A stretch of DNA of 62,599 nt, the filler included, from Hausera hauseri (Eukaryota), in assembly GCA_046269625.1 (NCBI GenBank). It is 13 parts of 13 records of this genome, joined end to end, with 100 filler letters (N's around TTAATTAATTAA, not from the genome) between each part and the next. Parts side by side here need not be neighbours in the genome. Positions count along the whole stretch, not along the records: positions 14,565 to 21,788 come from JBJURY010029671.1; 12 more parts are not named here. One strand, written 5' to 3'. The translations under genes were made by a program, and so were the position numbers. This document shows positions 1,950-59,239 of the stretch, piece by piece (position 1 is the stretch's first letter; each line of letters begins with the position of its first letter). The notes under the pieces are model-generated. The model did not search any database, was not told the DNA's origin, and saw only the letters and a list, made by a program, of their open reading frames with translations.

Positions 1950-2963
1950 TGGCCTTTCTGAATTGCCATAATGACATTTGTAGGCTTGACTGCTCCGCGA
2001 TATTTCATAACAATCGATATGAATTTCCCTTTATTTAAGTCGGTTTAAGTCATTTGGTGATCTTTTGAGGAGACACGTCTTATAATTTGTTCGACCGATG
2101 GACTGGCATACTTAATTCGTGTTTCGTGCGGGATTGGAGAATGTTTCATTAATGCGTGGTGTATCCTTGGATACGGTATTAAATTTGTATGCATTTCTTT
2201 CAAACCAGACATCATCGTTGTTTCAAATCGCGCTGATGCTGTAGATGAGCTAATCATTAGAGATATTATTCGATTGAGATTAGGATAATTAGGTGAATTC
2301 ACAAATAATAGATATTTACAAACATCATAAATAGCTTCATTATTAAAAGGTGTAGGCAAATTACACGTATCTAGTGTTGTATGACTATGGAATAAGCTAT
2401 TGTATGGTTCAACAATCGCCGTAGGCATTATCGAGCTGGGAAACAATGCCAATTGTATTCGGTTTGTTTTGAGATAATCAACGGCTATTTGCTGCATTAT
2501 CAACGCACCAACTCTAGGCCCAGTACCACCACTCATACTGTTAATGACGATAAATGCATCAAAATTATTCGTAATTTCAGCTAGTTTAAATAGCTGTGGT
2601 AAAAAACAATCTTATTAGTTGTACACCAGAATTGAGGCTTCCTCGCGCACAACTGTTAACGGAATCTTCACAGTCAGTAATCATTGATTTTCCACTAAAA
2701 ATATTTCGATATGCACCAGTCTTAATATCATTTATGCATGTGGGCTATGAATCGACAAGTATCGTTTCTGGATTCAACTTACAGTGGTTTACTGGTAGGA
2801 ATAATACTGTCGTTCGGTCAGGTTCGTCAGCTAAATTATTATCTGTTAATGTTTTTAATCCATCTGGATCAATAGTGTGTTCAAGACATAATAATTCCCA
2901 CAGTGCACTGGCACACTGCACACCAAACTGACCAATATGTATAAAAGCGACTTCAGACGGCAT
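1950..2963 (-). pseudogene. Highly divergent alpha-tubulin-like pseudogene, 3'-truncated
   Basis: MPSEVAFIHIGQFGVQCASALWELLCLEHTIDPDG; SMSGGTG; IVEPYNSLFHSHT; FNNEAIYDVC; PNYPNLNRIIS; TNLIPYPRIH; YRGAVKP. It has an in-frame stop at 2745 and frameshifts, with no obvious introns. Confidence 0.85.
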
Positions 2964-3007
2964 GCAATTATATAGCAATGGTTTTGTAATGGCAGTTGAA
3001 AAAAATG

Positions 3008-3430
3008 TTACTGGCACCAATTGTAAATTCCAAAAGAAATATCCGCAATTGTTGAGTTCTGCCACGCACCGTCATCCAGTAGAGTATCCGACATGACATC
3101 AACTTTCACTAGTGACGTTTTTACTGACGTAATAGCGTCTTTTTTCTGAACGAATTCTTCTGCATTATCCAATAAGGCAATATTCGAGATAGTGTCTTGT
3201 TGTAACCATTGCAACGACTGTAAATTCGCGTATAATGGAATATTACAAGAATTGCAATTAGCTTTCGGTAAAGATTTGACATTCATGGGTTTCATGTTAT
3301 GAATATTACCGAATTTATTGTTTAATATAATTGCAGAACCGTTTTTTTTGTTATTGTCCATATTTACAATCATCATTATACGAGCACGATATGGAAGATT
3401 GTATAAACACTGACTGATTTCTGACACCAA
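3008..3430 (-). CDS. Unknown ORF or gene fragment between the structured terminus and the tubulin-like sequence
   Basis: 140-aa open frame, same orientation as the tubulin-like sequence; no recognised domain. Confidence 0.3.
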   Translation of the reverse strand: MVSEISQCLYNLPYRARIMMIVNMDNNKKNGSAIILNNKFGNIHNMKPMNVKSLPKANCNSCNIPLYANLQSLQWLQQDTISNIALLDNAEEFVQKKDAITSVKTSLVKVDVMSDTLLDDGAWQNSTIADISFGIYNWCQ

Positions 3431-3589
3431 TTTGTTGTTGAACTGGCCGATAAATATCCGGATATATAAAATATAAATTCCAAACGATAAGATTTAAAAA
3501 TTTAAAAAGCAACATGGTTGAATTGATTTATTTGACTTACTTTTCTTTTCTTGTCAAGTCAATTCACATATTTAAACAAATTAACATCT

Positions 3590-3763: not shown

Positions 3764-4730
3764 CTTACCTTCATTTCTTCAATACTTTGTCTGTTCCTTT
3801 CAATATTTGGGAGTCTTTGGAGTTGTTTAATGTAATGCCGCGATTAGCTCCACTTCTGTCAAGGCTTTGCCTTTTGGGTTTGTCGACTCTGTGATAGATT
3901 CTGCATAGTTCTCAACAATATTTGCAACGTATGCGTGCCTGCTGTTCACCCTCTCTCCATATCTTTTCTGACCATACCCCGTCCTTTTGAAATTGTCGGT
4001 ATACGTATTTTGTACTCTTCTGCTCTTATCCAATTTTGTATAGCACTCTTCTTCCCTGTGCCCTCTGTTGTGACATCTATTGCATTTTATGATTATGCAA
4101 TTTCGCCTTATGTGTCCTTGCTGGCCACACTCATAGCATATTATGGGTTTCCTTCCCGGGCAATTCCTGTTAATGTGCCCTTCTTTCTCGCAACCAAAAC
4201 ATCTTGGTACATATTGGAGGTTGCATGTTCTGCTTGTGTGCCAGTCTTTTTGGCACGACCAGCATTTCATCGTGCTCTTTGCTGCGTATTGTGCAGTTTG
4301 AAGTCCTTTCTTTCCTGTCTTGGTTTGTCAAATTTGTTCACCGCCACATCCCGGTAACTCCGTCGACCCTCCCTAGTGTATTCTCTCATTGTGTTTATCT
4401 CTTCCGTCTTTGTTGCTACTTCGTGGACTTTCCGTATTATTTCTTTCATTTGTTCGACACTTTTTTCGTCACTGCAGTAAATTTCCTTTCTCAACTCTGG
4501 ATTGTCGCAACAGTGGATCATTAATTCCTCTGTTAGAGCTTCCAGTGTTACTTTGTGGCTAAGAATTCTCTTCGCCAGTTGTTCAATTTTGTTGAAATAG
4601 GCGTCCGATTCTGCTCCCCCCCCCTCATTCTGTAGTTCAAGGCCTCATGCATATCTCTGCAGAGCGTTGTGGGTTTTGAAAATGCTTTTCTCAACCGGTT
4701 TTGGTACCTTTTCACCTTTTGATTCACCAG
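3764..4730 (-). mobile_element. Ty3/Gypsy-type gag with four CCHC zinc knuckles (frameshifted)
   Basis: CWSCQKDWHTSRTC, CFGCEKEGHINRNC, CYECGQQGHIRRNC, CNRCHNRGHREEEC; interrupted at 3763 by the structured terminus. Confidence 0.8.
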
Positions 4731-9076: not shown

Positions 9077-9082
9077 ATCTAT

Positions 9083-9990
9083 AGTTTAACTCATTTGTCC
9101 CGCCATTATTTACTAACCATTCTCTGACGTCCTTTACATATGTGGTTAACTCACATTCTTTTTCAACCATCTACTCGGATGATACTATTACTTTCATCGC
9201 TCTCTCAGGTTTACTCCTCAAGATTTTAGCGCATTTCTTTATCAAAAGTTTCGGCAATGTACCATGAACCGTATTCTCGCTAGATAATTTAGTTAAGGTT
9301 GAAATGAGTTGTCTCAACTTACCCTCAGTAATGTTTACATTAATTAGTTCGATTAAATCCTTTTCAGTTTGCGCTGAGTCTAGCAGAATCTCCACGTCGA
9401 ATCTCCTACTCTGCGGGACTGTTTCTATTTCATTTAGGTGGTCTGGAGTTATAGGATTTGCGGCCGTTATCGCCTCTAGGTACGTATCCAATTCCGGTTC
9501 ACTTCCAATATCTGGAAGTCCATAGCCTACTAAGGCTATATTCGTTCTTTGCACATTTTCTCGAATCTCTTAATCTTGGTTGTATTTCTTTTATCTGCGT
9601 AGTTCGGAATCCTATTCCGTTTCCACAGGCATGCTGAATCATTTTCGGTAATTCGCCTATTTCATTGGAATCGATGAATCCCTTTTGGTGATAATCGGTT
9701 AGTTCAATAATCACATCTCTGCCATCTTTGTACAAATTCTCGCTTATTTTTGATTTCTGATTCGGTAAAAGCGTATTTGTTCCAGTAGATCTCGAGCTCT
9801 TTTACTAATTCATTTAAACACATTGCTCTTTACTTGTTTTTATGCACGTTTCTTCAACCTGTCTTATTTTACGCAACAATTGCCTCATCCTTTCATCATT
9901 AATCTCTGCCATTTCTACTAATAGGAAGGCTAACTCGTACATCTCATTTATGACTTTTAAGTCGGGATCTATCGCATCAAGCAGCTACTC
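9083..9990 (-). mobile_element. Large Gypsy family: ORF1 fragment (coiled-coil to start of UBL domain)
   Basis: IIELTDYHQKGFI, ALVGYGLPDIG, DLIELINVNITE match 18422-19294 and 62014-62599. Confidence 0.85.
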
Positions 9991-10261
9991 NNNNNNNNNN
10001 NNNNNNNNNNNNNNNNNNNNNNNNNNNNNNNNNNTTAATTAATTAANNNNNNNNNNNNNNNNNNNNNNNNNNNNNNNNNNNNNNNNNNNNTATTATAATC
10101 ATTCAATCCATACCTGCTGCGGACTTTCATTTGGAGAAACGTATAGGATTCAATACGCAACAGGAAAAAGCGACCAGAGCTACAGAACATATTTCTCATA
10201 TCCCGGTACTACACATTATTTCCATCGACCATACTTTCTTATTTCATTCTATACTAAGGTC

Positions 10262-12715
10262 ATGAAGAATGGACCTTGTGTAACCGCGGAGCCAGATATC
10301 GTAATTACAGAGTATACGAAATTCAAGTATATAATATTTGATGGAAATAATAGTACACACTGTGAACCAAGCTATCAAAACCCTTATAAATGCTGTCCTA
10401 TCGTTTTTGATAAACTGTACACTATATATTATTGGACCACGTATAACGGCTATACATGGTCAAAAACAGCAGATGGTCCAGAGATAATAGTCAGATCTCC
10501 GGTAAAGGTAACTTCCACTTCGATAAAGAGAACAACTACCTCGGTAACACAATCAAGCATACCAACTAAATTACAAAAAACAGTAACTACTCCAATGATG
10601 GAATCCCAAAAGGATATTAAAGAATTGGATATAATTATCCAACCAACAAGTCATTCATTAGTTATTACAGTGCCCGACCTGAAGAATACAAACATGAAAT
10701 TTGAGTGTCATCTCAACCACAGAGTGATTAGTGAAGGAGTTTTAACTCCTGAGGAACCGACATCTGCCTGTATGTTTTTGAGAGCCGATACAAATTATAA
10801 AGTCGTCATAACAGAACTAGATGACGAAGGAGAAAAGTTACGAACAGTTTTCCGTACAGAAAAGACTTTAAAACAGATAATAACTACTCCTAGAATAATA
10901 CTAAAAACAACTACACAAAAACCAGAACAAACCTCGAATAAATATTTTTGGATAATCAGTTTATTATGTGTCTTTTTAATATTACTAGCTATACTTTTAC
11001 CTTTAGTAATTTGCTGTTCGACAATAAGACGACGACAAAGAAGAATAAGGGAAATGTTAGATCAATTAAGAATTTTAAGGGAAGACTCCCAGGTATCGTT
11101 ACAAGATATAAGCGCGCCCTTTTTAGAAAATCAACGGCAAGTTGAAAGACTTACCGATCAAGAGCGGCAAACCCGACCGTTGAAAGACACAACCGTATGT
11201 CTCTGTATACAAATCCAGGATCAGGCCGCAAAATTCCTAGCGACCTATATAAAAAACAGACAATCAAAATGTGATAATATTCCTTTTTCTAAAACCGCTT
11301 GGCTAATATTAATATCTTTATTTTTAGTCCAAGAAGGTGCTGAAAGAACCGAAAGACCCAACTCATTTTACAATCACATCCTATCTAATTTATGGGCTAC
11401 CTCCAATAGAGACTACTGCTACTACGGAAAAGCCGCCTTCATTCCCAACAACCTTAAAGGTTATTCAGTCCAGCAAAGAAGTAGCCTCATAATTAAAGTC
11501 CGACAGAGCTCAACTAATCTCTCTGACTTAATTGATACTTCCGGACGCACTTATGCCATATATATCTCCGTGGCCAAAGGAATTATTCAGCTCAAAAGCA
11601 AGTCGCATTCGAATGGAATTACAGACGTAATGGAGATCTTAACCCGTGTAACAGTTCGCTTGGACCCTCGATTGTACGCTAATGCTACGATCACCCTACG
11701 GACATGTCAAGAAATATTTCCAATAATTTACCTCGAGGTCATAAAGAAAGATTTAATACCACGTGTGGACTACCAGATCCCTAAATACATTACTCCCAAA
11801 CCGAAAGAAATTGATGTAGAACAAGGATTATCATTTGCGAGAAAGTCAATAACATCAAAAGAAGAAATGTTAATCATGGCCGTAAATTCTATATACCTAT
11901 TCACCCCTATCAGAAATACTGAAATGACCACGGTAGAAGTAACCTTGATGAATCTAGATGGCGGAATCGTTTTGGATGAAATTTTATGCCCTAGAGAAAA
12001 GATCGATAATTATAACAGCCACGTAACCGGACTGAAAGAAGATCATATTATTGGAAAAAAGGACTCGTACCACGAGGAACCCTTCATAAGGAAAATGATC
12101 GTCGGAAAAGTAATCATAGGCATTGATGTTTATCACATCCTTGCAACTACCTTCAGATATGATTACAATAATCTATTGGGAATTAGAGAATTGTTATACC
12201 ATGACAGTATCAATCCCCAAAGAGTATATACGGCCAAACAGATTCTTACCCAGTACAATGGTAACATATACCCTCAAAGAACAAGAGAGAAAGCGGCAAC
12301 AATATTAAAAATTTACAATTCTATTCCGGAGTACAAAAATGAACAATTCCAAGTCCCGATGGATATACAAGAATCTCCAGATACCCAATCAATTGCCACC
12401 TGCTCGACATCCACCCAATTTGCCGGTGATCAAGCATCGACTTTTATAAAAGACTGTTATATTAATCTAAACCCAATAACGGCAGCCAGTTCTACAGAAT
12501 CAATCGTCGTTGACCTAACCAAAGCTCCGAAAAAGAAAAAGAAAGTCCCGAAGACGGAGACAATCACCTTGAAGAAACAAATAAAAAAGAAAGGAAGACT
12601 ACTCCATATCAAGTCTGTCGATTATCAGGATTCTAATGGCGTTATTGAAGCCTATCCTCTGATGCTGCGGACAGCATCATCTAAGGAGGGAAATGTCCAA
12701 GCAGACCGGAAATGA
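10262..12715 (+). CDS. Retroelement 3' ORF (5'-incomplete): Cys/Thr-rich ectodomain with FN3-like stretch, TM helix, cytoplasmic region with REX4/ISG20-like exonuclease fold
   Basis: 817-aa open frame. TM YFWIISLLCVFLILLAILLPLVICC at about 10943-11017. VEVTLMNLDGGIVLDEILCPREKIDNYNSHVTGL...GKVIIGID at about 11861-12320 matches the DEDDh scaffold. The ORF ends across a PPT/TGT junction. Confidence 0.7.
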   Translation: MKNGPCVTAEPDIVITEYTKFKYIIFDGNNSTHCEPSYQNPYKCCPIVFDKLYTIYYWTTYNGYTWSKTADGPEIIVRSPVKVTSTSIKRTTTSVTQSSIPTKLQKTVTTPMMESQKDIKELDIIIQPTSHSLVITVPDLKNTNMKFECHLNHRVISEGVLTPEEPTSACMFLRADTNYKVVITELDDEGEKLRTVFRTEKTLKQIITTPRIILKTTTQKPEQTSNKYFWIISLLCVFLILLAILLPLVICCSTIRRRQRRIREMLDQLRILREDSQVSLQDISAPFLENQRQVERLTDQERQTRPLKDTTVCLCIQIQDQAAKFLATYIKNRQSKCDNIPFSKTAWLILISLFLVQEGAERTERPNSFYNHILSNLWATSNRDYCYYGKAAFIPNNLKGYSVQQRSSLIIKVRQSSTNLSDLIDTSGRTYAIYISVAKGIIQLKSKSHSNGITDVMEILTRVTVRLDPRLYANATITLRTCQEIFPIIYLEVIKKDLIPRVDYQIPKYITPKPKEIDVEQGLSFARKSITSKEEMLIMAVNSIYLFTPIRNTEMTTVEVTLMNLDGGIVLDEILCPREKIDNYNSHVTGLKEDHIIGKKDSYHEEPFIRKMIVGKVIIGIDVYHILATTFRYDYNNLLGIRELLYHDSINPQRVYTAKQILTQYNGNIYPQRTREKAATILKIYNSIPEYKNEQFQVPMDIQESPDTQSIATCSTSTQFAGDQASTFIKDCYINLNPITAASSTESIVVDLTKAPKKKKKVPKTETITLKKQIKKKGRLLHIKSVDYQDSNGVIEAYPLMLRTASSKEGNVQADRK

Positions 12716-14464
12716 ATCCGAGACTAAAAGAGAATTACAAAGCAAATAAAAGAAACAATTACCTAAATTTGATTTTTGACCCAAATGAATTGCAAAATAA
12801 ATAAAAACAAGTATCTCAGAACTTGATCTTTCATTTCCCCTGTAATCATAAAAATGATTTTTGTTTTTTTTTAAATTGTGCTAAATGATTTTTATTTATT
12901 ATGTAAACTTCCTCCGTTGAATAATGACTATATATACCGATGTGAATTGCATTGTAAAAACAACATTCTTTGACACGAATCCTTTGACCGATCCATTATG
13001 AGTATTGTCTATGATAATTGTGAGTATGTCATTTTATTACTTTGTTATCTATTTTGATTGTCATTCTTAAAGATTATAGTATTTATCCTTATTAAAAATT
13101 TCTTATTTTGATTGTTTTTATTTCGTTGATTTATATTAGTAGTTTAAATAAAATACCGTATATCAATAGTTAAAATTCTGATAAAATTACAAGCACCCTT
13201 TTGGTATACCTTCCTTTAATACAGGTCGGTTGTTAAAATTACTATAAATAAAGGGGAGTGACGTCGGTATACCTCCCGATCGAACTCACACACTAAGGGC
13301 AAGTAAATAAACCTGATTCTTTAACCTCGGCAGACCCATAGGCTGCCGAATACCTTGATTAATTAATTACAACTTGGGACAAGGAGAGGGCCCAAGTTGA
13401 GAAAAGATAGTATAAGTTTGAGGTCTTGAGACCAACTAACTCTTACACCTTTTAAACTTATCAAAATGAATTATTGCAAGTCAATTATCCATCAGATTTC
13501 TAAAATATTCAAGCCCATGAAATGCAACTTCGTCCGCATTGAAAGGTTAACCTTCGGATTCAAATCAGTCGAAGATTTTAATAAGGCAATATCTACTTAT
13601 TCGGAAACTGACAAACGAGCTTCATTCTAAACCACATTTGAGACCATTCCTCAACAAGATGTTGTTATTTGGGAAACTTTCAAATAATTTTGGGCTTAGT
13701 TTTTGTTACCTTCTTTGTACATTAATTTGAAATAAACCACTACAAATAAAGCATTAGGCAGTGCAGAACAATTACGCTGCGCCTACTTAGCTAAAAATAA
13801 TTAAATAATAAAATTGAATAATTCTTTCTTGTTTCGAGTATACATTTGTTATAAAAGGCCGAAAATCATAAGTGAATGTGCAAATTGTAAATAGAATCGA
13901 AGGTGAAATCAAATATCAAAATATTACTAGAAACTAAAAAAGAAAAATTATTATTAATTTTGGATGATTAATGGGCTTATGCCTACAATTTGAAATAATT
14001 GTATCTCCGAAAAATTGTTTACCAATACGCCCACAATTGTGAATAATTGGGCAGAAACCGAAAGAAATTGTTCGAAAATTATTTGTTAACCATTCGCCCC
14101 CAATTTTGCATACAACCATTTTAATATATAAGGCGGCTCAGAATTAGTTGAAAGAACGAGATTTTAAGTCTGAAAATTTCATTGATTGAGCCATCAGAGA
14201 AGCTCAAGGAGCTTTGAAAACTTGAATAGTGTTGATTTTGGACTCGCAACGCTCACAGTGAGCAATCAAATAAATCCAGTTTGGAAGTTGACGCATCCGA
14301 AAACTCGAAGCAATTATTTATTCTTTGACGACTGTATTTTAAAATCGTCTTTATAGTTGTTTGTTGCGCCCTTAGAGGGACTTGAGTAACATTCAGGATT
14401 AAAATGGAGAGTAAAATTTATAGTTAAGTCGAGACTTATTGAACATTTGCACAGGATTTTCACG
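12683..14464 (+). repeat. Polypurine tract (12683-12693) followed by TGT: putative 3' LTR start and long non-coding region
   Basis: AAGGAGGGAAA|TGTCCAAG at the end of the long ORF; LTR 3' boundary not determinable. Confidence 0.5.
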
Positions 14465-14564: not shown

Positions 14565-17500
14565 GCACTCGACCAGACTGTACTCTTGGTAGTGTATTGT
14601 TGTTTATTATATTCGGATCTAATGTGTCCTTTGGTTCAAAGTATACTGGTGGATGGTCATCTTGCTGTATTTGGGCATAAATTATCATTTCTGTTCTTGA
14701 TGGAATGTTTTCGTCCACCGGTATCCATACCTCTCCAAATTTTCTTTCTGTGGCGTTTTTTATGCCTTTATTTAGTCCGATTTTATCAGCTTCCCCGTTT
14801 GTAAGTCAATCACTATATTCAGTAGTCTTTTCAGTAGATCACATCCTAAGACCATGTCGTCGGTTAATTGTTCCATAATTGCAAATTCATGATGAAAATT
14901 TTGTCCAACTATTTGGATTTCTAAGTTCCATTTAAACATAGGTTTCGAAATTTGACCAAAAACTACCGTGCTTCCCCGATCCTTTGTGGATGTCGGATAT
15001 AACTGTCCCCTTAACGAATGCGGTATCGATTCATTCTTAATGTAAGACATTTCGGATCCTGTATCGATTAAGGCAGAAACTTCCCAATCTTCAATGATGA
15101 TTTTGGGAGAGGGTCTTCCTTCTATTACTGTTCCGAAACAGTTTAACGCATCTTTTGAGCGTTTAGTGCTTGATATTTTATGTCCGTTGATTCGGATTTC
15201 GGGAGAGAATACTATATTTTCCGACAATCGTCTTAATTCTCGGTTTGATTGTTAGTGTGTAGTTCGGTGTTCTGAAAGGTTTTAAACCTTGGATTGTCCC
15301 AAACCGTTGATCTAGTTTCTATATTCCGAGGTTCTCTTGGAGAATACAACATCTTGAAACCATCTGTGGATTGTCGGTAACGCATTTTCCGTAGGATCCC
15401 GTAACGTTTCGTTCCTTCATAAGGGTCTTCTACATTAATTGTTCTTTTATTGATTTCCGTCTGATATGAACTCATTGATAGTTTGTCACAGTCTTTATAA
15501 ACTAGAGCAATAAAAGGTAGCATAGAAAATGGTGCTTTAATGACAGAATACGCTTTATGTCTGCTTATCCCTGAAAGTACTTATCCTCCTTCAGGATCGT
15601 CATCATTTGAATTATTTCTCCGTGTATTAGATTTTGTAAATTTCCGCTTTCGCAAGAATATAGGCCTTTCTTTTTGTTTATGATTATAGTAACCGACATG
15701 GCGTTCCACGTCCGATTTCCATCTATTTTCTTTGTATGCTTTTAAGAATTTTCCAAAGGGCGTTATGATTGCAGTCAGTATTTTACATGAAAATCCAGTC
15801 AATGTAAATATTTCATACCCATTAATTACTCCTTGGATGACCGCCTTAATTATTTGTATCAGAAATATATCGCTAAGTATCCGGATGCGGCTTGTCCAAA
15901 AATCAAAAATCTTCCCCAAATTTTATAAAGTATTTCTGTGGTTACTCGTTGATAATGGTTTACGTTGAGTAAAGATTCCCATTTAGCCTGATATCGTGTA
16001 TCGCCTACTACTGAGGCTATGGCTCGTTTTAATTCATGTGTTTGTTGTCGCGGGAAAGCGAGGAATTGTCCGAAAGCTTCAATTTCCTTAGGCCTGTATA
16101 TGCCTTTCGACAAGGTATTTTGAAATTTATCGTCCGTAATTCCTTTCGAAGGATTCATTATTGTTAATTTATTTGGGGCGGTTGTAATAACTCCATTTGG
16201 CAAACTAACCCAGTCTGTTTAAGTACGTCTAAACATGGGTTCTCCCAAGCTTGCCTTACAATATTTAAGAATGGTTGGTTGGATTAAATTATCCAATAAC
16301 ACGCTCGTCAACAGTGTAGCTAACCTTGGCGTATTCTGATAAATAACAGTAAGTTCCCGAATACAGCGTTTTTCTTCCACATTGATGGGTACATCTCTCT
16401 TTTCACATTCGTAAGTTAACAGTAATTCACCCGTGACTCGACCGAAAATTCCTTCTCTCATATGGATTATTGGAGAAGCCAACTCTGGGTTGGCATTTAT
16501 GAGGACCAATTTCTTCCTCATGACCTCGGTGTCTAATTTACAGTCACTCGTTATCAATTTGTGATATAATTCCGTTATTCCGATTGTCCTTTATAGTAAA
16601 ATTAATCGTCTCTGTTTTTCAAGTAGTCCTGAATCCGGATATACTGTGTTTCCAATTTATAGGTTTTCGCATTTATCTCGGTTTCGGCTATGAAGAACGC
16701 CTCATAGTTAGTAGCGAACATTACTACGTCACAACGGGAACTCATCTCCTTTTTAATAAAATTTAGTCCATGATGACCCGAGATTTATATAGTGGGTGTA
16801 GGTTGTTCCGATACGTCTTCATGTGTCCTTGAGTTGGTATCAGATTTATTCACCTATCGCTTTCCGGTAGTTTCATTAAACTTCAGTTCGTTAATTTTAA
16901 TAAAATTACAACTTCTTTTAGATTGAGGTTCCCACATTATAACAGAACTTCTAAAATCGCAGGTTCCATCTTGCAAATGACACTTTTGATTCTCGGTGTA
17001 TAACTTGGTGACACTATGAAACATTACTTTCTGTGACCGCATCTCCGATTCATAGAAATCCACGACTACCACGTTTGTTTGCAACCCTTTTCCGGTGTCG
17101 TATTCCGCTCCGTAACAATGTCCGCTATGCATATCCAATATTCCGACCACTACTTTGTATGTTCTAATTATCTTTCCTAGTTGCATTTCTAATTGCATAC
17201 TGTCCCATTGTATCCTCCCAGTCTCCTTGGCTTGTTTGCAGTGTTGGCGTTCTAAATTCATTGGAATTAGAGGAATTGTTGGTTTGATTATAGAGGAACG
17301 TCCGTGTACCAACCCACAATGAAAAATGCTACGAGATCGCCTCAGCATACATTCCATTCCATTTAACGATATCAATTCTTGTTGTTGATACAGGAGGTAA
17401 TTTTTCTCTCTTGTCTCCAACTTGTGCGGTCTGGCATCTTCGCACACTTCCAAATCCATTAAGGAATATCTCTGCCCTAGTTTAAACTTATCGCAGTCGT

Positions 17501-19950
17501 AAACGGTAACAGCGCTAATGTGCTTTATTAGCATCATCAAGGTGAGTAGGCTGATTAACCAGTTTGATTCATTTTTCCGGTAGCCAATATCCGCCGTTGT
17601 CAAATTACGTAACATATCGTCGAGTTTATTACTGGTTCGTCTGTCTTCTTCCTTGTCAAATAGTCTTGAGCAATTTACGTCGCAGAACAATCTTCTTCCG
17701 TGTCAAATAGTCTTGAGCAATTTACTTTGCATGGCAATCTTCTCGCCGCTTTTCGTGCCAAGCTTATAGCTCTATTGATTCAATTCTCTCGATTAGGGTT
17801 TATTTTAATAGCTAAGTATAGTAATACTTTTCTCAATTCCTCATTGGTGTTCTCTACCATGACCTTTTCGATTACCGATTCATCGGTTAAGTTACTTTTC
17901 GATAGTTTAAAACGTGAACTTCTCACGATTCTAACTGCATTGAATATACCTTCTCTTTATCATCTAGTGTGTCATCTCGAAGTCTCAAATAATTTACAAT
18001 TCGTATTAAATTCTTCATAAACTCGCTTAATTCTTCATTATCTGCGCTGAAAGTCGGAATTGACATTTGTCTCAATTCTCTTATCATCTCTCCATTATAA
18101 TAGACTTCTTCTCGCGTCTTCTTTGGCCTACCGACTGGATGTTTCTGTTTTGGAACATTAACTATCGTTTCACTTAGTGGTACTAAATTCTTGTCGTATT
18201 GCTCCCTGTCTTCATCCATTTGTAAATACTCGAAATACATTGCGGCGTCTCGGACTCCCATGATTTGTCCTACGCATTGTTCTGCATTAGCCCTACGCGT
18301 GGCTTCTTTTCTAGTTCGTTCATTGGCTATTATTACTACTACCCGATTTGTTTCGTCTGGAATAATTCCGACGTCTATTAACTGTTCTAAATCGTCTAGT
18401 ATTCTACCTCTAAAATAAAGTCTAATTTAGCTCGTTTGTTCCGCCATTATTATTTAACCATTCTCTTACGTCCCTTACATAAAAATAGATAGTTAACTCA
18501 CATTCATTTTCGTCCATCCACTCGAATGATATCATTACTTTCATCGTTACTTCAGGTCTAGCCCCCAAAATTTTCGCGTATTTCTTTATCAAAAGTTTCG
18601 GCACCGTACTATAAATTGTACTTTCACTATATAATTTAGTTAAGGTCGGAATAAGTTGTCTTAACTTACTTTCAGTAATGTTTACGTTAATTAGCTCAAT
18701 TAAATCCCTTTCAGTTAGCACTGAATCCAAGAGCATCTCCACATTGAATCAACTGTTCTGCGGACATGTTTCAATCTCATTTAATTGCACTGTAGTCACG
18801 GGTTTTTCGGCAATTACCGCATCTAAGTATGCATACCATTCCGGTTCATCTCCAACATCTTGAAGTCCATAGCCTATTAAGGCCGTATTCGTTTTTTGTA
18901 AATTTTCGCGAATTTCTTCCAATCTTGGTTGTATTTCCTTCATCTGCGTAATTCGGAAACTTATTCCATTTCCACAGACATACTGAATCATTTTCAGTAA
19001 TTTACCTAATTCACTAGAATTGATAAATCCCTTTTGGTGATAATCAGTTAGTTCGATAATTACATTTCTTTTCCATCTTTGTACAAACTCTCGCTTGCTT
19101 TTAATTTCTGATTCGATAAAAGCATACTTGTTTCGGTAAATTTCGAGTTCTTTCGCTAGTTCATCTAACCTTGTTGCCTTTTGCTTTGTTCTGATGCATG
19201 TTTCTTCTACTTTCTGTAACTTGGGCATCAATAGCCTCGTCTTCTGATCATTAATTTCCTCCATTTCTACCAATAAGTAACCTAACCCATACATCTCATT
19301 TATGACTTCTTAGTCGGGATCCATTGCATCTAACAATTTCTTTGCGAACTTAGATTCCTGAAAACTAAGATATTGCTCATCTCTTATGTTTGTCAACTCG
19401 GTATGGAAATTCTGATCCGATCCGGCCTTCCACTCTTGTGATTTATGCAAGAATTTTATTGCGTCCGTTAAAGCGACTCGATGTTCCGGACAAATGTCTA
19501 TGGTTGCAATATCTTGGACAGAGATCTCATCGATAGGTCTATCTGTTTAATGCTGAATTCCTTCTAGTCGGACATTTCTTAATCTTGGGTAAAACGTACA
19601 AGTCATATTTCGCTTTTCTGTAAAATTCGTCTCTTCGATCATTTTATAGATCTCCTCCAGTATCGTTGCTTCTTGTTTCTTTTTCATAAAATTTAGCCGT
19701 CGTAATGCTTCAAATTGAATTCGGATATCTATTTCTGCCTTTATTTTGTCTAAATTACGTGCGCTTCCTTCTAAGTGTTTCTTTATAGAGGGTCCACTCT
19801 CTGGAAATTCTTTCTTACGGTTTTCCACTAATTTACTTAATCGCGTTACTAATTCGGACCATTCCGATAATTGATTGACGATTAGTGGCTTTGCCATTAT
19901 AGCCTTATCTAGCATCTTATGTGTATCTTTTAACTCATCTTTGATCTAAT
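14565..19950 (-). mobile_element. Large Gypsy family copy: ORF1 (coiled-coil, UBL) - chuvirus-like glycoprotein - aspartic protease
   Basis: Collinear broken ORFs from 19915 to 14565; protease ALIDTGSEMSY and MVLGCDLL in ORF 14772-15227. Confidence 0.85.
15740..17565 (-). pseudogene. Chuvirus-type (class III-like) envelope glycoprotein, disrupted
   Basis: Signal WLISLLTLMMLIKHISA|VTVYDC..YSLMDLEVC; LLYQ..ECML.RSIFHCG; C.GAEY.....NVVV; C...DGTC; GRVTGE.LLTYEC; C..EL.V; GIY...F..FP; C-terminal hydrophobic anchor. Confidence 0.8.
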
Positions 19951-21029
19951 AGAGAATATATATCCATTTGGTAGATAACGAAGGAACAAAGAAATAACTG
20001 ATTGATTGTTTTTATTTTCTTTTAGCTAATTCAAACTATTAATCTATAATACAATCTTACAATAATCTATATACAATGTTATCTGTTCAAACAAAATGTC
20101 TCTTCATTAAACATCTTTCTGCTGTACTGAGACTGTTCATCAACGGCAATACCAAAAGAAGGAGCAGTGTCGGATAACTGGCCGAATAGATTTTGTACTT
20201 CAGGAGGAATCATTTGATTCGAATTTTCTATTCGGTTTGATGTGATAAATCGATTCAAACAATCGGGGAACGACGAGTAATAAGGACAGGGAAATTGAAC
20301 ATTGATGAGCAACTGTCCCGTAAAAAAGAAACCGAGTTTCTGAGCATTTCATTGTACTGCCATTATCTAAATTTTTGCATGAGATTCGATAGTATTCTTC
20401 TGACTGCTAGGAGACAACATTAAAAAAGTGTGAAATAATGTCATTTTTTATTAACAAAAATATAATTTGCTAGGTCACTCTGTCTGGTTGGAATACAAAT
20501 GACTGACGTCTGGCACGTCAAAATGTGATGGATCTGTTAATGGTGATGATATGTTGGAGATTTGGTTCATAATTGTGAGTAATGACTTTTTGATACGTAG
20601 GATCGCATGTCTGACATACGGACGTTGGTGCCAGCACTCCGGCGAGAAACCGAGCTGTGCCAGCGACCATGGCACCACATCACTGCCCCGTGTAGAAAAC
20701 AGACTATGTAAAAGTGAAACAGAATGATGAAGATAATATAGATGAGAGCAAGTGAGTTGTGAAAAAGGAGCAATGTTTGATGCCTATTCGGTTTTGGTAT
20801 GAGTTAAACGTTGTGTGCCATCAATAAACCTTTCTCTGCTGTATGTATTGAATGTCACTCTACGTACCTTTCTCGATGGATTAGCGCTGGGCTGTTGTGT
20901 AATATTTTGTGATGGGGGTGATAGCGAAGATGAGTCAAGCAAGAAAGGAGATGAAGGTTGTGAGCATGATGACGGAGAGTGAAGTGAAATGGATGGAGGA
21001 AATGATAATGATTGAGTGTAGTCGAGTAG

Positions 21030-21788
21030 TTATTGCTGCAATGGCGCAAAATCGTTTAGAAAGTCAGTAGAATTGCTAGCTGAGTCTGAATTAAGTGTAG
21101 AATTGTTATCTAGAATGTCGTCAATGAAAAAGACAGGCTTCAGATTCGAAATGTGGACGTTATAAGGTTTATCTTGCCGTAAGATTGTTGCCGCGTGAGA
21201 TGAAAGATTCAGCAGTTTGTATGGGCCAGCACATTGAGGTCTAAAACCAGAAGGAGATTGATCTTTTAAACACGTAAACTTGGCGGCGTATAAATCCTTT
21301 GGAATGTAGGATTTGTTGTTATTAAAGATGCGGCAGAATGAATCTGAGCTGACCTCGACGAAGTGAGATTGTGCCGCACGAATGTTTTCGTCTGCAGGAT
21401 TGTGGTCGAGATGCGAAAGCTCAAATAAGGCCAAAATTGAAGTCCCAAAGAGTGCTTCGGCTGGAGCGCAACCGGTAGTGGTCGAAGGTGTGTTTCGACA
21501 ACCTAGTAGAACAAATGGTAGAATGGACGTCCAATTACGATTAATATCAGCCAACATTTTTAATGAGACCTTCATTGTATGATGGAACCTTTCAAGAAGG
21601 CCGTTTGCTTGAGGATGATATGGTATTGTATGAAAATTGGATATCCCCAAGCGTTTGACAAGTGATTTGAAAAGCTCAGACTCAAATTGTGGACCCTGGT
21701 CCGTTATTATATAACGTGGGGAACCAAAGCGACTGATCCAGATTTTTATGAAGGCGTCAGCAACTGAATCAGTGTTTGTTGAACGAAG
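21030..21788 (-). mobile_element. Ty3/Gypsy integrase core remnant (different family)
   Basis: WISRFGSPRYIITDQGPQFES; TIPYHPQANGLLERFH; GPY motif. Confidence 0.85.
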
Positions 21789-23691: not shown

Positions 23692-26600
23692 TTGGCTCAA
23701 ATCCACGAGCCGGAAAATTGCCACAATAATATGAAGAAGTACTTTGGCCATACGTACAACAGGGTTCAGTATTATATATGCCTTACATGTGAGGTAGTGT
23801 GCCAAATCAATTATGACGACTTTTACAATGTCTATGAACAGCAGTTGATTCTTCACCATGTCGAAAAACAAATATTCAGTACCAATATGCCAATAACGAC
23901 TTTCGTGCCGAAGGAAAATCGAGGGTGAAGTTCATATATTTATTGCACATGTGTAATACACAACCCTCAGAATTGCCACAATGCCATGAAGAGCTATTAT
24001 GAACTCAAATTCAATAGGATCATCTATTATATCTGCCCAGGATGTGAAGCTGTATGTGATGGAGAATACATACAATTTTATGAAGATCACAAACATTATT
24101 TGACTGACTTGGCATCAAAGTCAAAAAAGATCATCTTTAATGACAATAAGACAGTTGCAACACAGCCTGCACCACAACGGCTTGTAGTACCACAGCCTGT
24201 AGTACTACAGTCTGCAGTACCACAGCCTGCAGAACAGCCAGACGCAGGACTAAAACGCGCATCGGGCGCATCAGGCGCATCAGGCGCAGCGGCTCCATCA
24301 AATAGTCAAAGACAGCGGCTAGTTGATGCTGCAGCATTAATGAAAAAATGCCGCAAATATGTCATTGATGCAACTGGTCAAACAACCATAAAGGAGTCCC
24401 TGGAGTACACAGAGGAAGAAACAGAGGGGATTCTTTAGGACAACATAGCTGAGCTCAAGGCCATTAAGGCTAATATGAAACTTGAGTCCACATACGTCAA
24501 TGTTGATGGCAAAGAGTCCAAAAGGGCCTTTAAGACAAGACATAGACCCATTTTGAAGCCACCAATATAGTAGAATGGCTGCATGAAGAGCATGCAAAGC
24601 TGATCCGTGAATCCGATGAGAGTCAGTATAAGAAGAGCGGATGGACTCTGGCAACCATCAAGAGATTGCTTGTGTATGTTCACAAGTACTCTCTAATGCG
24701 GAGCAGTTCTTATATACATCTTCCGAAATGGATCGCTAATAAAATGCATGTGTCAATGTCCATAATAATGACAACAAGTGTTTCATATATGCCATTCTAT
24801 CAAAACTCGTACCGGATCAAAAATATGCAGAAGATCGAGTTTGGCTATATGATGATTTGAAGCACAACTATGACTTCCAGTGTATCACATTCCCTACATC
24901 CTTAGATGCAATTAAGAAGTTCTGCCGAATCAACAACATATCCATCAACACCATTGGATTCGATGAGGAGGACAAATTTTATCCCCTGCAGATATATGAT
25001 ACTGAATTGGAAGATCATAGGGATCTGCTCCTACTAGACGATGGAGAAAAGACACATTATGTTTGGATCAAGAATCTTGAGCGTCTAGTCAGATCCCAAA
25101 TTACGAAACATAAGGAAAGAATAGAAATATGTAAACGATGTCTGTCTCATTTCAGTGGTGATACAGCAATGGACAAGCTTGCAGAGCACAAAATGTACTG
25201 CAACAACAATTAATGTATCAGGTCAGAATTTCCTAAGGAGGACTATATTGAATTCAAGGAGTTGGAGAAGAAGATCAAGGTCCCAATAGTTATCTATTGC
25301 GACTTTGTAGCTATTCTCGGGCCAATTCACAGCTGCACTCCCAGTCCTCAACACAGCAGCACAGCGGCATAGCAGTATCATGAACTCTCATCGTATTGCA
25401 TGTATTCCAAAGGATTGGACAGTGAACCATTTCTATTCAGAGGTCCAGGCGCAGCAACACATTTCATGAAACGACTTGAAGATATGGCTCATAAGCTTGA
25501 AAATATGCTTCAGCAACATAAGGATAATATGAGCATATATAAGCAGCAAGACGAAGAATGGCGCAGGGAAACAATATGTTACTTGTGCTCCAAGTCATTC
25601 ACCAAGGAAAATCATAAAGTAAAGGATCATTGCCATTTTACAAGTGCATATCGGGGCGCAGCATTCAACTACTGCAATCTGCGTTGCAAAACATGTACAT
25701 ATGTGCCTGTAGTGTTCCACAATCTCAGTGGCTATGATTCCCATTTAATAGTCCGAGAATTAGGCGACATTGAAGGAAACATTGAGGTGATACCTAATAG
25801 TGAGGAGAAGTATATCACATTTACGAAGCATGTGGGCCGCATCAGACTTCGCTTCATTGATAGCTTCCGCTTCATGAGCTCGTCACTGGACAGTTTAGTA
25901 AAGAACCTCCCTGCAGAAGAACTCAAGGAGACGAAGCGGTTCTTCCCCACTACCTTTGACCTGGTTAAAAGGAAAGGCGTGTTTCCTTATGACTACATAA
26001 CCTCATGGGAAACACTGGATGAGACTTCATTGCCGGACAAGAAGGAATTTTACAATATCCTCTCTGATTGCGATATTAGCGATGCTGACTACCAGCATGG
26101 CCAGAAGTTCTGGCATGCATTCAATGCCGAACATTAGGAGAATACAGCGACATATACCTCAAGGCGGACGTGCTGTTGCTCACAGATGTCTTTGAAAGTT
26201 TCAGGGATGTTACAATGAAGAGCCATGCTTTGGATCCGGCTCATTTCTTTACGACTCCATGGATGAGCTAGACAGCTATGCTGAGATATACCGGCATAAG
26301 GCTGCAGATCATTAAGAATTACGACATGATCCTTATGATCGAGAGAGGCATTAGAGGTGGAATATGCCAGGCCATTCATCGGTATAGCGAGGCCAACAAC
26401 AGGTATATGACCCAGTATGATCCATCCAAGGAATCCTCATATATATCATACCTGGATGCCAACAACTTGTATAGCTATGCAATGAGCGCCTCATTGCCGT
26501 ATGATAACTTCAAATAGGTCGAACGCCCTTAAAACATTTCTATATTGGACCTGGATCCCACTGTAGATACGGGATACATACTAGAGGTGGATATGGAATA

Positions 26601-27126
26601 TCCTGCTTCCATCCACGCAAGGCATCAACAGCTGCCTTTCTTCCCTGAGAGCAGGCCTCTGCCCCATGAAAAGCATAAAAAGCTGATCTGTCATCTGCGT
26701 AACAGTGAGAGGTATGTAGTTCACTCCATCAATCTCCAGCAGACAGATAGACATGGACTTTGTATTACCAAGATCCATAGAGCCCTCCAGTTCAGCCAAT
26801 CCATGTGGCTGCAGCCCTACATAGATCTCAATACGAAGCTTCGGACAAATGCCAAAAACGATTTTGAGAAGGACCAGTTCAAGCTTTACAACAACTCGTT
26901 CTTTGGCAAGACCATGGAGAGTATTTGCAACAGGATCAACATCGAATTGGTACGTGACTGGAAGCGAGCAAAAAAGCTTATTTCCAAGCCTAACTTCCAT
27001 AGCAGCATCATATATGCTGAGAACTTGGTCAGCATTCATATGCTGAAAAATCCTTGGTATTCAACAAGCCCATATATGTGGGTATGGCAATCCTCGACCT
27101 GTCAAAGACCCTGATGTATCATTTCC
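23692..27126 (+). mobile_element. Decayed Polinton/Maverick/adintovirus-type protein-primed DNA polymerase B with EndoVII-like zinc module
   Basis: YCDF (ExoI); C..C...DHCHFT..YRGAA...CNL; VFHNLSGYDSHLI; FIDSFRFMSSSL; KGVFPYDY; YLKADVLLL; GIRGGI; YLDANNLY; KLYNNSFFGK; many stops and frameshifts. Confidence 0.9.
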
Positions 27127-27899: not shown

Positions 27900-30800
27900 T
27901 GCAACAGCAATCGGTCGATTTACCAGTAGTCCATCTGCCATCATTTGTCGGAGCAGTTCGTCTTGATTGATGTTTGCCAGCTCAAGAAAAAAGCTGCTAT
28001 GTCACCGGCAACGATACTGATCTCACAGCCGTCAAACATTTGCCGGTAACGTGCAAAGTCGCGATACTGGAGCTCGTACATTTGCAACTTGCTCAGATCC
28101 AATACCATTTGTCCGAAGTTACTTTGACGGTCCAGAATGACTTCTTCCCGGTTTAACAGCACAGCATCCAATCCATCGAAAATGTGCATTGACCACCGAA
28201 ACTTCACCTTACTTATGTACGTGACAAACTGCTTTTCGCTATATCATGGGCGTATATTGAGCTGTTTTTTCAGATTCTTCACTACTTTTCCGTATAGAGA
28301 ATTGTTTTTCAGCTTGTAGTAGTCCTTTCCGAACTTTGTGCAAGCTGTGGATCGTTTCTCTGAATTTCCATCTACGTACGCCTTGAAGATGGGAGCCTGA
28401 CCGAATCGCATTGCACGATGCAGCTGTGTGACGCGTACACCCAACTGTATGTAGAACTGTAGCACATGCCAATGGACCACGTAGTTCAGCTTCGGTTCAT
28501 GCGTCATGAGCAGTTTCTTCACTTTTGAGCCTGGTGGACATTGGTTAAATGGTGCGACCGCTAAATCGTCCAAAACGTCATGCAGCTCATCTGATACCAC
28601 GACATCGACCTCCATCAGGTATCCGACTGAGCTTGTCATGTCTGCTCGTGGTAACTTAAGCATTATGTCGTCCAGATTTTGCCTGTCGACTACCCATTCG
28701 AATGAACCGTACGGCAAGGATTGCGAAAGCGCCCAGTCGTACAGGTTATTAATATCAATATACAGCAGTGATGTGGTATCGACGGTAGTACTGACCTGAT
28801 GCTTGTTGACAAAAGTCATGCCACAGCGAATACCAACATCAAACAGCCGGTACATTTCCGTGTCTTGCAGCAACTCAATGTCTCGATCCAGTGACATTAG
28901 AGTTGACGCCCAACTCATTCTCGGTATGGAATAAAAGTTGAGTCGCTCCAGTTTATATTCCGCCAAGGCTTTCGCCCAAAACGCCTGGAACACGTTGGTT
29001 AATAAGTAGATGTCCAATTTAAGATACTGGAGCATGTACTCCAACATGTTTCTACAGCCGAGCTGGATCCAAGATTTTTGTGGTCTCCAATATTCAGCTT
29101 CTGTGATGCTTGTCCATCGCGATGATAATTCGTCTGCTGTCCGGAGTAGCTCATACGATGTTGCAAAGTCATATGGAAATATGCCTTTGCTGCGTGCGAT
29201 ATATGCGGGGAACTGCGTCAGTGCTATCGGCACATTTGGCAAGGCATTAACCAGTATTGCCAGAGATTCATTGAGAAATTGCAATGAATCAAGGAAACGT
29301 ACCTGGAACCCGTTTATACAAGCAGTGATGGATATTTCTCCATCGTAGTCAGAATTATGGATAGTTCCAAGTGCAGAAATTTATTTATTGCCCATTTCAG
29401 AATATGGTGACAATCATAACACCTGAAGCTATGAAATACCACCGGTAAGAATTGCCGCATACGCCTTGCAAAATTGCATGAATTACATGCTGCTCCGAGA
29501 TATCAACCAGTAAAATGATCGTGATCCGGTACGAGTCGTTCCAGTGCGTCAAACGGTGATATTCTGTGGCATAGGAAACATTCATCGGTCGCAGCGAATA
29601 TCAGAGGTACATATTCATCTGTGCATATCAACGGTTTAGTGGAATTATTACTATACCACGGTTCTACTTTTGTTTCCACTATCGTTTCCAAATGCTGCAA
29701 AAAAATCACGTATACAGGTCAAGCCGTGAAAGTGTAATACTGCGGCTCGCCGACCGCTTTTATTGGGACAACCAACATACGAACGGCGGCTGGAACATGT
29801 TTTTAATCATACTCGTTGTGCCGTTGTAGAATTCCTCCAATATCGGCATATACCACATATGCCGGACTGTCCGTTTTTGACCAGTCATTGAATCGGAGCT
29901 CCTTTTTGAGTGGCATGACGTACATGTTGTTCCCGTTGAATTCTGCTTGCACAGCGTCACATGTTTCTCCCATGTTGTTTTCGACCTGAAACCATGCAGA
30001 TATACAAGATACCACTTACATTGTAAACTCTTTTCGACAAACTGATGGTGATCTATGTTCAGCAGTCGGTCCAAATTGGTCACTGCCATGTAATAGAACT
30101 TTACTTTTTGCTCTAGCAGTAACAAATATATTGGGCGTCCACTTGCGTTCCGACTTCAATAAATTATGTCCACATAGGGGTTCTTATATATTTCTTCGTT
30201 TGCCGGTATTTCTATTATTGTACTGTACCGCAACACATTTATTGCCAGTATTGTATTACGCCGTTCAAAAGCCGGAGTGGTTTTCAGTTTCATCGGCATC
30301 CAGCATTCATCGAAATTTAATTCGATAAAGTACTGCCGATGCTGATTTGGACGATTTGCACTATGTCTGTCCAATTGGTTATATTTTATTACCGCCATGA
30401 TACTGTAAAGAACATAGTATTCGTCGTCAGTATTTTTTACATTCAATACTGCATGTGAATGCTGCAGGGCTGTTGGTGACGGTATGAGTGATCGCCCGGA
30501 CAGGTAAATTATGTCATTCGACTTTGTTACGACAAACCGAGAGTGACTATTTTTATAATTTGCCAGCCACCATCCTTTTCGCTGTAGTTGGTAATTTTTT
30601 CATTGAGCTTTCGCCTACATCGGCAATAAAATTATCGGAATACGGTTCGGCTGGATCCGACAGGTACCACTGTTTCCTGTCACCTTGCAAGTTTTCAAAT
30701 TTTGCAAGTAAGTGCATAATATTGCACTAAGTAATGGTCTTGATTTTGTTTGATTTTCTCCAATTCGGATTCCAACAGTTTGCGCACATTATGCGGAACA

Positions 30801-34500: not shown

Positions 34501-35574
34501 CAATTGAAACAGTAGTCCATAACCCTAAAAGAAGGGTTATACTAACTCCAAAACAATGTACAGATACATTCACATTCCAAAATCCAACTCAGGGATTTGG
34601 ACTAACGAGAGGAATCTTGAGTACTCCAGCAACATTTAAGAAAATGAAAACAACGAAGCCTCTAATAGAAATAAGAAAGAAAGCAATCAATATTGACGAT
34701 TTACCAGAAAATAAGAAATTAAAACTTCAATCTCAGATATTGGAAAATCTACAAAATAGCGAAAAATATCGATTGAAAAATAGATCTTGGCAGGAATTAT
34801 ATGGCAAATTCATCCTAATCTTTTATATTACGATTATCTGTATCCATCAAAATTTTATGCTCAATTGATCAAACAAACAGAAAATTCGACGGATATCTTG
34901 TATACCGATAGTAAATATATTGATATTGACTTAAAAAGTTCAACGATTAATGATAGGATGTTCCGAATCTTAAAAATAGAGGAGGCACGTTATAATATCA
35001 ATTTAATAGAGTTACTACACCTACAGCCACCTTTCGAAAAGGTCTTAATTCATTTAGCTCGTGGAGTAATACGATCTCGAGCACAATCTGATTGTTATGA
35101 AGCTCTTCACCCTCAAAATTCCATTTTGGAACCTAAGACGTCAATAAGGGTCAAATATTCCGCATTCCAAACGGAAATCTATTTCAATATATTACTACCT
35201 CCGGTAGTTATTGGAATAGAAATTTGCCAGTATATAGATGAAAACGTCGGTCTAGAAGAAACAATATTCTACAAAATACCGGGAAAAGGAGTCTGTAATT
35301 ATCAGCTAACAGAAGCTTGTAATTATAGATATCTGGCCGTCTCTTTGGCATATGCCTCGAATGGAGATCCATTACGGGTAGAAGTGATCATTGCAGGAGA
35401 AGACAAATTAATTATTTATCAAGCATATATAAATCCGAGAAGAAAAATATCAAATACAAATGAACATATACATGGATTACCTCTTTCAATAATACAGCAA
35501 GCTGAAGATGAAGAAGATGGACGAATTAAACTAATTAAATATTAGTGCTAACACCAGTACAATCATCAAAGCAC
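31586..35574 (+). mobile_element. Gypsy RNaseH end, integrase, signal/TM protein and exonuclease-fold domain (decayed)
   Basis: FDIEFRYRPGKDN..DALSR; AMDFSGPFP; TTAYHPQCNGKVER; GPY; hydrophobic LFLLIMIFGLILSSTA near 33085; TM IILFVVIILLLQLI near 34020; VEVII...IIYQAYINP..ISN.NEHIHGL at 35380-35480. Confidence 0.8.
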
Positions 35575-39826: not shown

Positions 39827-40022
39827 TGTAGTGCCACGGTCCAAGACATGGTCCTCCATTTCTGACAATAGACTCACCGTTTTGGCGCAGCTAGGCCGCA
39901 ACGATATTTTGTCCCGCTTCGTTACCGTTTGGTCTATATTTTATTTAGCAGACGAACAGCACACAGTAGTATCAAATAAAATCAACATTCGTACTTGGTT
40001 ACTTACCAGACTACTAATTATT
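39827..40022 (+). repeat. Possible diverged third structured terminus (starts TGTAGTGCC) inserted in the glycoprotein gene
   Basis: Glycoprotein homology stops exactly at TGTAGTGCC; shares CCATTT and CCGCTTCG with 3590-3763, but overall similarity is low. Confidence 0.35.
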
Positions 40023-57253: not shown

Positions 57254-57353
57254 NNNNNNNNNNNNNNNNNNNNNNNNNNNNNNNNNNNNNNNNNNNNTTA
57301 ATTAATTAANNNNNNNNNNNNNNNNNNNNNNNNNNNNNNNNNNNNNNNNNNNN

Positions 57354-59180: not shown

Positions 59181-59239
59181 ACTGTGCTTTTGGACTATAT
59201 GAATTTGGTTTTTCCTTACATTTCAATTATTTAACATTT

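Follow-up and report, generated by a model that had tools for sequence, protein, structure and literature searches.

The planarian element Burro encodes gag, env and pol in frame as one polyprotein with a mononegavirus-like glycoprotein, and the section describing it places a ubiquitin/SUMO-like and then a BCL2-like domain ahead of env, all between gag and the protease (PR), reverse transcriptase (RT), RNase H (RH) and integrase (IN) domains (PMC6431247). Elements ordered GAG-ENV-POL with a gB-type envelope protein (Env) occur in Nematoda, Bryozoa and Platyhelminthes, where they are termed 'ancient errantiviruses', and the text of that survey describes such glycoproteins as chuvirus-like (PMC13524379). 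A stretch of 62,599 nucleotides from Hausera hauseri (assembly GCA_046269625.1; hereafter the window) holds fragments of a Ty3/Gypsy lineage in which a class III fusion glycoprotein lies between an upstream open reading frame (ORF) and PR-RT-RH-IN. An initial annotation of the window had presented this order as unusual; it was already published in the sections on Burro (PMC6431247) and on the gB-type GAG-ENV-POL elements (PMC13524379), and the window represents a further, decayed family of that published group. We assign a probability of roughly 0.88 to the reading that these fragments are decayed Burro-like Ty3/Gypsy copies whose intact relatives encode Gag, ubiquitin-like and Bcl-2-like domains, a class III Env and PR-RT-RH-IN in one frame.

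The window consists of 14 contigs of 4-7 kb with spacers between them (GC 33-41%) and contains many broken transposons. Env-bearing fragments, all on the minus strand, lie at 14565-19945 (copy 1), 35675-39827 (copy 2), 59239-62599 (copy 3) and 9078-9986 (copy 4). All three copies annotated initially are real, and a fourth, at 9986-9078, had been missed. Copy 1 shares 80% nucleotide identity with copy 3 over 3.4 kb, 80% with copy 4, which comprises only a piece of the spacer between Gag and Env, and about 68% with copy 2 in Env and PR. Decay of copy 1 shows in some seven changes of frame, eight or more in-frame stops and, at 17644-17737, a tandem duplication of 47 bp that shifts the frame ahead of the Env signal; near 19950, other elements truncate the copy. 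All window copies are now defunct and incapable of yielding the protein.

Scanning 35 ORF pieces with Pfam located PF24664 ('Monjiviricetes_fusion') in four collinear pieces of copy 1 (17702-15581, E 5e-17 to 1e-5), at 39890-39264 in copy 2 (E 8e-14) and in four collinear pieces of copy 3 (61663-59231). A signal, an ectodomain and a C-terminal transmembrane segment of Env were all found by hydropathy scan. In copy 1, the internal hydrophobic segment predicted to act as the Env signal occupies 17502-17558 (minus strand; Kyte-Doolittle 1.9), the same place that it takes before A-Y-D-C in relatives, and the broken ectodomain and transmembrane anchor extend over 15824-17513 (minus strand). Modelled with AlphaFold from an alignment to 45 relatives and with X at three stops, the N-terminal 308 residues of copy 1 Env reached a predicted local distance difference test score (pLDDT) of 89 and a predicted template modelling score (pTM) of 0.77. 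The best matches of this model in PDB are all herpesvirus gB (E 1e-7), plus GP64, and in BFVD chuvirus and xinmovirus G proteins lead (E 2e-18, TM 0.6, 13-20% identity). The modelled residues contain the fold of class III domains I-II and the conserved cysteines. Judged from this single-chain model, Env is a class III fusogen by fold; the class III, chuvirus-like glycoprotein first suggested from the sequence is thereby upheld. Env is nearest in fold to chuvirus G, and a chuvirus is no more than a candidate donor.

Downstream of the anchor, copy 1 continues into a cytoplasmic tail and linker (15240-15823, minus strand; 60% amino acid identity to copy 2 at saturated synonymous divergence, dS) and then into a retropepsin and a following beta-rich region that is cut by the contig end (14565-15239, minus strand; RVP E 3e-7 at 15251-14772; 53-58% identity to copy 2). 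The distance from the Env transmembrane segment to the protease D-T-G/A motif is about 0.75 kb in copy 1 and 0.85 kb in copy 2, in keeping with the retropepsin annotated shortly 3' of the glycoprotein on the same strand in these two contigs. The C-terminal part of Env, transmembrane segment, tail and protease of copy 2 (37977-39827, minus strand, 5' truncated) form a single frame over 39890-37977, of which six stop codons are the sole breaks; copy 1 has sense codons at four of the six, those where the two align. RT and RH with a YLDD motif follow at 36300-37902 (minus strand; RVT_1, RT_RNaseH E 1e-31), and an H2C2 integrase with the start of the core at 35675-36262 (minus strand; Integrase_H2C2 E 1e-15), where the contig ends. 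This PR-RT-RH-IN order (PF17917, PF17919 and PF17921 matched; RT-RH matches all of Gypsy type) is the Gypsy order that had been annotated for the second contig. In copy 3, which keeps the spacer, a signal at 61021-60965 and Env as far as the transmembrane segment before its 3' truncation, 318 open codons (61663-60707) run from the upstream ORF through the hydrophobic segment LISLLTLMMLIKHISA to VTVYDC, just as the initial annotation had described an ORF1 reading in frame through an internal signal into the glycoprotein.

Ratios of nonsynonymous to synonymous divergence (dN/dS) were estimated by the Nei-Gojobori method on in-frame tblastx segments, with frameshift neighbourhoods and stop codons excluded. 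Between copies 1 and 3, dN/dS is 0.15 in the spacer (457 codons, confidence interval (CI) 0.11-0.20) and 0.10 in Env (511 codons, CI 0.07-0.14), and between copies 1 and 4 it is 0.25. Because these values, 0.10-0.25, fall well below 1, the check that the initial annotation had proposed, the element was under purifying selection in the past. Synonymous divergence is saturated when copy 1 is compared with copy 2, and amino acid identity is 53-61% (Env 60%, tail 60%, PR 53-58%), about equally diverged in all three parts. Env and PR must therefore have been linked before the subfamilies diverged, so a nested insertion as a one-off event is ruled out, in agreement with the original view of an inherited env-before-PR order.

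The same arrangement is found unbroken in natural relatives. A HMMER search of 1.84 billion representatives gave 70 matches to Env, 19 of which were scanned with Pfam; a word-indexed search with the spacer-Env piece had found no longer relatives. Eleven of the 70 exceed 900 amino acids, and among these a Pfam protease follows Env in eight and RT, RH and IN also share the ORF in four (the sequences of P0032 and P0042 stop within Env or directly behind it, and that of P0041 stops in a protease motif). Where the N-terminus is kept, it holds capsid and CCHC, capsid being present in L001, P0032, P0041, P0050 and P0101. L001 and L002 are two loci retained from 65 pattern matches in a metagenome scan (a pattern scan of viral contigs gave none from one match, and an integrase search gave only three distant matches). 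L001 is a single ORF of 3703 amino acids from capsid to beyond IN, in the order capsid, two ubiquitin-like domains, Bcl-2-like region, signal, Env, transmembrane segment, PR, RT-RH, IN, second signal, ectodomain and transmembrane segment; L002 is alike, with an ORF of 3426 amino acids that is open at its 5' end. An env in frame between gag and pol, as in Burro, is thus seen in parts in the window, where spacer and Env are open in copy 3 and Env and PR share one frame in copy 2, and whole in L001. The single polyprotein proposed at the outset holds for L001, L002, P0036, P0038, P0048 and P0050, whereas the window copies are all broken. The ORF1 of the initial annotation corresponds to the spacer that follows the nucleocapsid rather than to Gag itself, and the window copies, truncated at their 5' ends, have no match to a capsid profile built from relatives. 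The 'giant' size likewise rests on relatives, because these contigs contain no capsid, long terminal repeat (LTR) or element end.

Between nucleocapsid and Env signal, the lineage carries domains recalling those of Burro. The upstream part of the copy 1 spacer (18650-19945, minus strand) is helical, 5' truncated near 19950, in one frame with three stops and homologous to copies 3 and 4; Pfam reports there only MLD (E 0.014). A helical and ubiquitin-like domain with a frame change inside follows at 18328-18706 (minus strand), where a four-relative profile matches 18706-18551 and 18435-18328; this profile matches only window copies, at that domain (E 2e-4). Searched against PDB, alignment A7 returns ubiquitin, ISG15 and SUMO in all of the 60 best rows, at single-domain E of about 1e-3 to 0.1, and L001 matches ubiquitin and PF11976 weakly. 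A predicted ubiquitin-like domain, at low scores, is accordingly placed ahead of Env in the window copies (62047-61745 in copy 3, minus strand). Relatives also have a Bcl-2-like domain just before the signal: the N-terminus of P0033 retrieves only Bcl-2 family chains (E 0.01), and profile A4 finds Bcl-xL first in PDB, at E 0.14 only. The window copies align with relatives at this region, which probably represents a degenerate Bcl-2-like domain (17700-17960 in copy 1 and about 61366-61100 in copy 3, both minus strand).

Cargo in the Gag-Env spacer seems to vary from element to element, and the spacer domains would probably affect apoptosis and ubiquitin pathways in the host. No Pfam match up to E 1 was obtained for BIR, ankyrin or MATH in the 1.5 kb of spacer that is kept, nor for a dUTPase-like region after PR, in copies that are truncated and decayed, and ESM Atlas gave no usable match for the copy 3 piece or the P0032 spacer. 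A likeness of the spacer model to kinesin (best VIA-align Z 6.1) was dismissed as noise. Upstream of Env, P0042, P0048 and P0100 look DEDD-exonuclease-like by eye, without Pfam confirmation.

Burro / GYPSM1, as its section describes it, and the relatives found here have in common ubiquitin-like, BCL2-like and env parts in frame before PR-RT-RH-IN, and Burro, like the window family, has left decayed fragments, in its case in related genomes too (PMC6431247). The HSV/gB-type GAG-ENV-POL elements match the window in order, class III Env and Ty3/gypsy pol, to judge from the text of their survey, which covers intact elements only, whereas the window copies are decayed (PMC13524379). Six Schmidtea C1a Env rows in its supplement show by eye the cysteine, TP and TNY pattern of the window, a pattern that ten nematode C1 rows there do not share (PMC13524379). 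The words Bcl, exonuclease, fibronectin, accessory and Burro are absent from its main text, and the survey cites nematode non-canonical endogenous retroviruses (ERVs) in which, as in the window, Env precedes pol in a metavirus (PMC13524379). The described parts of Anakin likewise combine a chuvirus-like class III glycoprotein with an LTR element, on a BEL/Pao backbone and after IN, whereas the window has a Gypsy pol and Env before PR (PMC7642597, PMC10084718). In bdelloid rotifer LTR elements, the passages on extra ORF3s report a DEDDy exonuclease and small transmembrane proteins as 3' cargo, as here, with an env that, unlike that of the window, is paramyxovirus F-like and follows pol (PMC5408684). 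Classical insect errantiviruses differ in having a separate F-type env ORF after IN rather than a class III Env before PR. Nematode ERVs with a continuous gag-env-pro-pol ORF were reportedly described by Sacco et al. in 2022 in J Gen Virol; their spacer cargo is said to differ from that of the window.

A number of results count against this assignment or loosen parts of it. No capsid, LTR, primer-binding site, target-site duplication or element end occurs in the contigs of the copies, an LTR-sized repeat was not found in three contigs tested nor in L001 or L002, and neither a span from gag to IN nor an intact state is seen in any window copy. The copy 2 RT forms a long branch outside the Env-bearing clade in both trees; four of its five best scores are to Env-bearing proteins, and an approximately unbiased (AU) test of its placement in their clade gave p 0.47, which fails to reject that placement. 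None of the 31 RT-RH matches from a search limited to proteins of up to 2000 amino acids lists an Env domain. The cut site of the Env signal is a prediction read from the alignment. The Bcl-2-like assignment is weak in the window copies: a five-member profile has no match in window copies, a seven-relative profile matches weakly (E 0.11-0.15) in the right place in both copies 1 and 3 as its sole two window matches (17932-17771 in copy 1, E 0.11), and hhalign scores 19 against a maximum of 16.5 in 40 shuffles, also weak. The BH2 'GGW' motif is absent there, and this, like the lack of a match to BIR, ankyrin or MATH in the kept 1.5 kb of spacer, differs from what is described for Burro. The spacer model is poor (pLDDT 38), and its fold searches returned neither ubiquitin nor Bcl-2, with nothing under E 0.001 in Foldseek.

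The fragments could instead record an endogenous viral element, a chuvirus-derived glycoprotein gene that nested insertion or template switching placed beside pieces of Gypsy elements without making it part of them. Jingchuvirales glycoprotein inserts with Gypsy and BEL flanks are reported as common in arthropods in the passages on them (PMC10084718), chuvirus G proteins give the nearest folds, and the contigs are mosaics of broken elements. This explanation is nevertheless highly improbable, being contradicted by the single-ORF relatives, by an Env-tail-PR junction that two copies share despite saturated dS, and by in-frame fusion on both sides of an Env with dN/dS of 0.10. Another possibility accepts the element and supposes that in this subfamily Pol was made separately from a Gag-Env ORF, through readthrough, frameshifting or a spliced RNA. 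Gypsy elements seldom make Gag and Pol in equal amounts; the stop at 38810 in the copy 2 tail adjoins a 27-nt gap in copy 1, and a frame change of copy 1 falls in the same Env-PR linker. Neither linker break is common to both copies, however, and Env runs unbroken into PR in eight of the eleven long relatives and in L001 and L002, and separate synthesis of Pol is very unlikely. With two copies compared, Env and PR may yet be divided by a programmed stop or frameshift in the window subfamily, a reservation about the single uninterrupted frame there.

A more serious alternative concerns what Env was for. It may have been a retained passenger that served membrane anchoring or movement from cell to cell within the host and never formed infectious particles. 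The passages of PMC13524379 and PMC6431247 on GAG-ENV-POL elements contain no particle or entry data, and host-congruent trees suggest mostly vertical descent (PMC13524379, in the part on those trees). The whole ectodomain and its cysteines were kept under strong purifying selection, as expected if fusion was used, and we hold the passenger role to be possible though doubtful.

For a Burro-like polyprotein, the following working may be proposed. The chain would likely pass through the ER membrane and be cleaved to give the components of an enveloped particle. Gag and the spacer would be made in the cytosol, until the internal hydrophobic segment opens translocation and signal peptidase cleaves ahead of x-Y-D-C, a conserved motif. 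In the lumen, the ectodomain of the glycoprotein would then fold; the Env transmembrane segment would stop transfer, so that the tail and, behind it, protease, RT, RNase H and integrase remain in the cytosol, anchored at the membrane, until the element's own protease frees the Pol parts from the Env tail. Gag, Env and Pol could in this way arrive at a single budding site in matched amounts, with no need for frameshifting, and yield the particle, and a second signal after integrase would export another type I membrane protein. As far as the sequences indicate, intact copies likely travelled as enveloped particles, with cell entry as the presumed role of Env.

That second membrane protein can be followed through fragments of the window that lie 3' of the Env-bearing pieces in the element. 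At 51498-52880 (minus strand), an integrase leads in frame into a signal-like segment and then a short ectodomain; its best matches are Env-bearing polyproteins (246, 228 and 178 bits vs 152 for the best other), with 43-45% identity to L001 and L002. A decayed fragment of the same lineage at 31785-35545 (plus strand) comprises integrase, signal, ectodomain, transmembrane segment and an exonuclease-related region. The integrases of two window fragments are thus closest to Env-bearing polyproteins, each with a signal-like segment behind it. At 10091-12715 (plus strand), 874 codons are open through a two-cysteine beta ectodomain, a transmembrane segment and an ISG20/REXO-like exonuclease (ISG20 1wlj, E 5e-4); the exonuclease matches the downstream ORFs of L001 and L002 (E 7e-18) and the ectodomain a profile (E 0.001). 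Membrane protein and exonuclease form one open ORF in this fragment, whereas L001 and L002 encode the exonuclease in an ORF of its own downstream of the polyprotein (in L001, these 3' parts occupy ORF residues 3304-3610 and positions 12085-13470). A further exonuclease-related region at 57351-59084 (plus strand), tail to tail with copy 3, is homologous to 34281-35545 and matches the L002 downstream ORF (E 2e-7). With these 3' fragments added, seven of the 14 contigs hold pieces of the Env-bearing lineage; no window contig joins the 3' part to Env, and the link comes from relatives.

Past IN, a signal and a transmembrane segment occur in each of the five Env-bearing polyproteins that extend that far (P0036, P0038, P0048, L001, L002), and 31 control Gypsy proteins, many of them shorter or cut, have none. 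A profile of L001 and L002 matches 10682-10915 (E 0.001), 33702-33881 (E 0.004) and P0038, and the post-integrase domain has two invariant cysteines. Pairwise phmmer among five post-integrase regions was not significant (best E 0.009), the 874-residue ORF has no BLAST match to P0042, and neither A9 nor the 320-residue ectodomain has a PDB match. An Fn3 identity was considered and left unconfirmed, its only trace being Pfam Fn3_Dep-1 at E 9e-4 over 28 residues. The relatives found here have a membrane protein and an exonuclease after IN, features that go without mention in the Burro section of PMC6431247 and without description in the main text of PMC13524379; figures and supplements may say more. 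By analogy, and tentatively, the Burro-type polyprotein might be a two-part entry machine: a class III fusogen together with a fast-changing type I receptor-binding protein after integrase, built of two-cysteine beta domains (possibly Fn3-like), and an ISG20-like exonuclease as counter-defence or RNA-processing cargo. Herpes- and paramyxoviruses likewise place attachment and fusion on separate proteins.

Among the relatives, repeated protease domains (at least two) occur in Env-bearing P0035, P0036, P0040, P0044, P0101, L001 and L002, one of them after IN in P0036. Residues 1585-1770 of L002 form a further signal-ectodomain-transmembrane module between two protease domains, which would give its polyprotein six membrane crossings. 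NCBI files P0038, an Env-Pol polyprotein of animal-retroelement type, under a Flavobacteriaceae metagenome-assembled genome, where it is probably a binning contaminant. P0056 is a predicted protein in which mitochondrial ribosomal L47 is fused to the N-terminus of Env, possibly by host-gene insertion or by a gene-calling join. In P0092, unlike in the window copies, Env stands behind DUF5641, a domain that we take to be linked to BEL/Pao.

Upstream of copy 1, 20100-20420 (plus strand) resembles a piggyBac transposase by eye, with no Pfam match, and 21033-21788 (minus strand) is an unrelated Gypsy integrase. A single sequencing run, and no RNA data set, is listed as containing this stretch; in that run, 3719 short contigs at 95% identity or more cover all 30 bins, with summed depth falling near 19.9-20.3 kb; the run may be the source sample, and its depth is not copy number. 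Elsewhere in the window, a very divergent, broken and intron-free alpha-tubulin-like sequence (2045-3493, minus strand) is interrupted by a gag with a weak DUF7041 match (596-2044). Another gag, with several CCHC knuckles (3827-4644, minus strand), shows no relation to the Env-bearing family with the profile applied. Polinton-like sequence, a decayed protein-primed DNA polymerase B with endonuclease VII, lies at 24743-27114 (plus strand) and 28244-30599 (minus strand), and a fragment of hAT-like transposase (DUF4371) at 44522-45537 (plus strand).

The finding links the ubiquitin-like and Bcl-2-like cargo of Burro, as its section describes it (PMC6431247), with the survey of gB-type GAG-ENV-POL elements, the main text of which omits Burro (PMC13524379), and it shows this cargo to be common to many relatives. 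A host outside the flatworms would widen the range of Burro-type elements. If the post-integrase protein does serve attachment, there would be retrotransposons with a virus-like two-part entry, and the rapid change of that protein would mark an arms race between host and element that is open to study in planarians.

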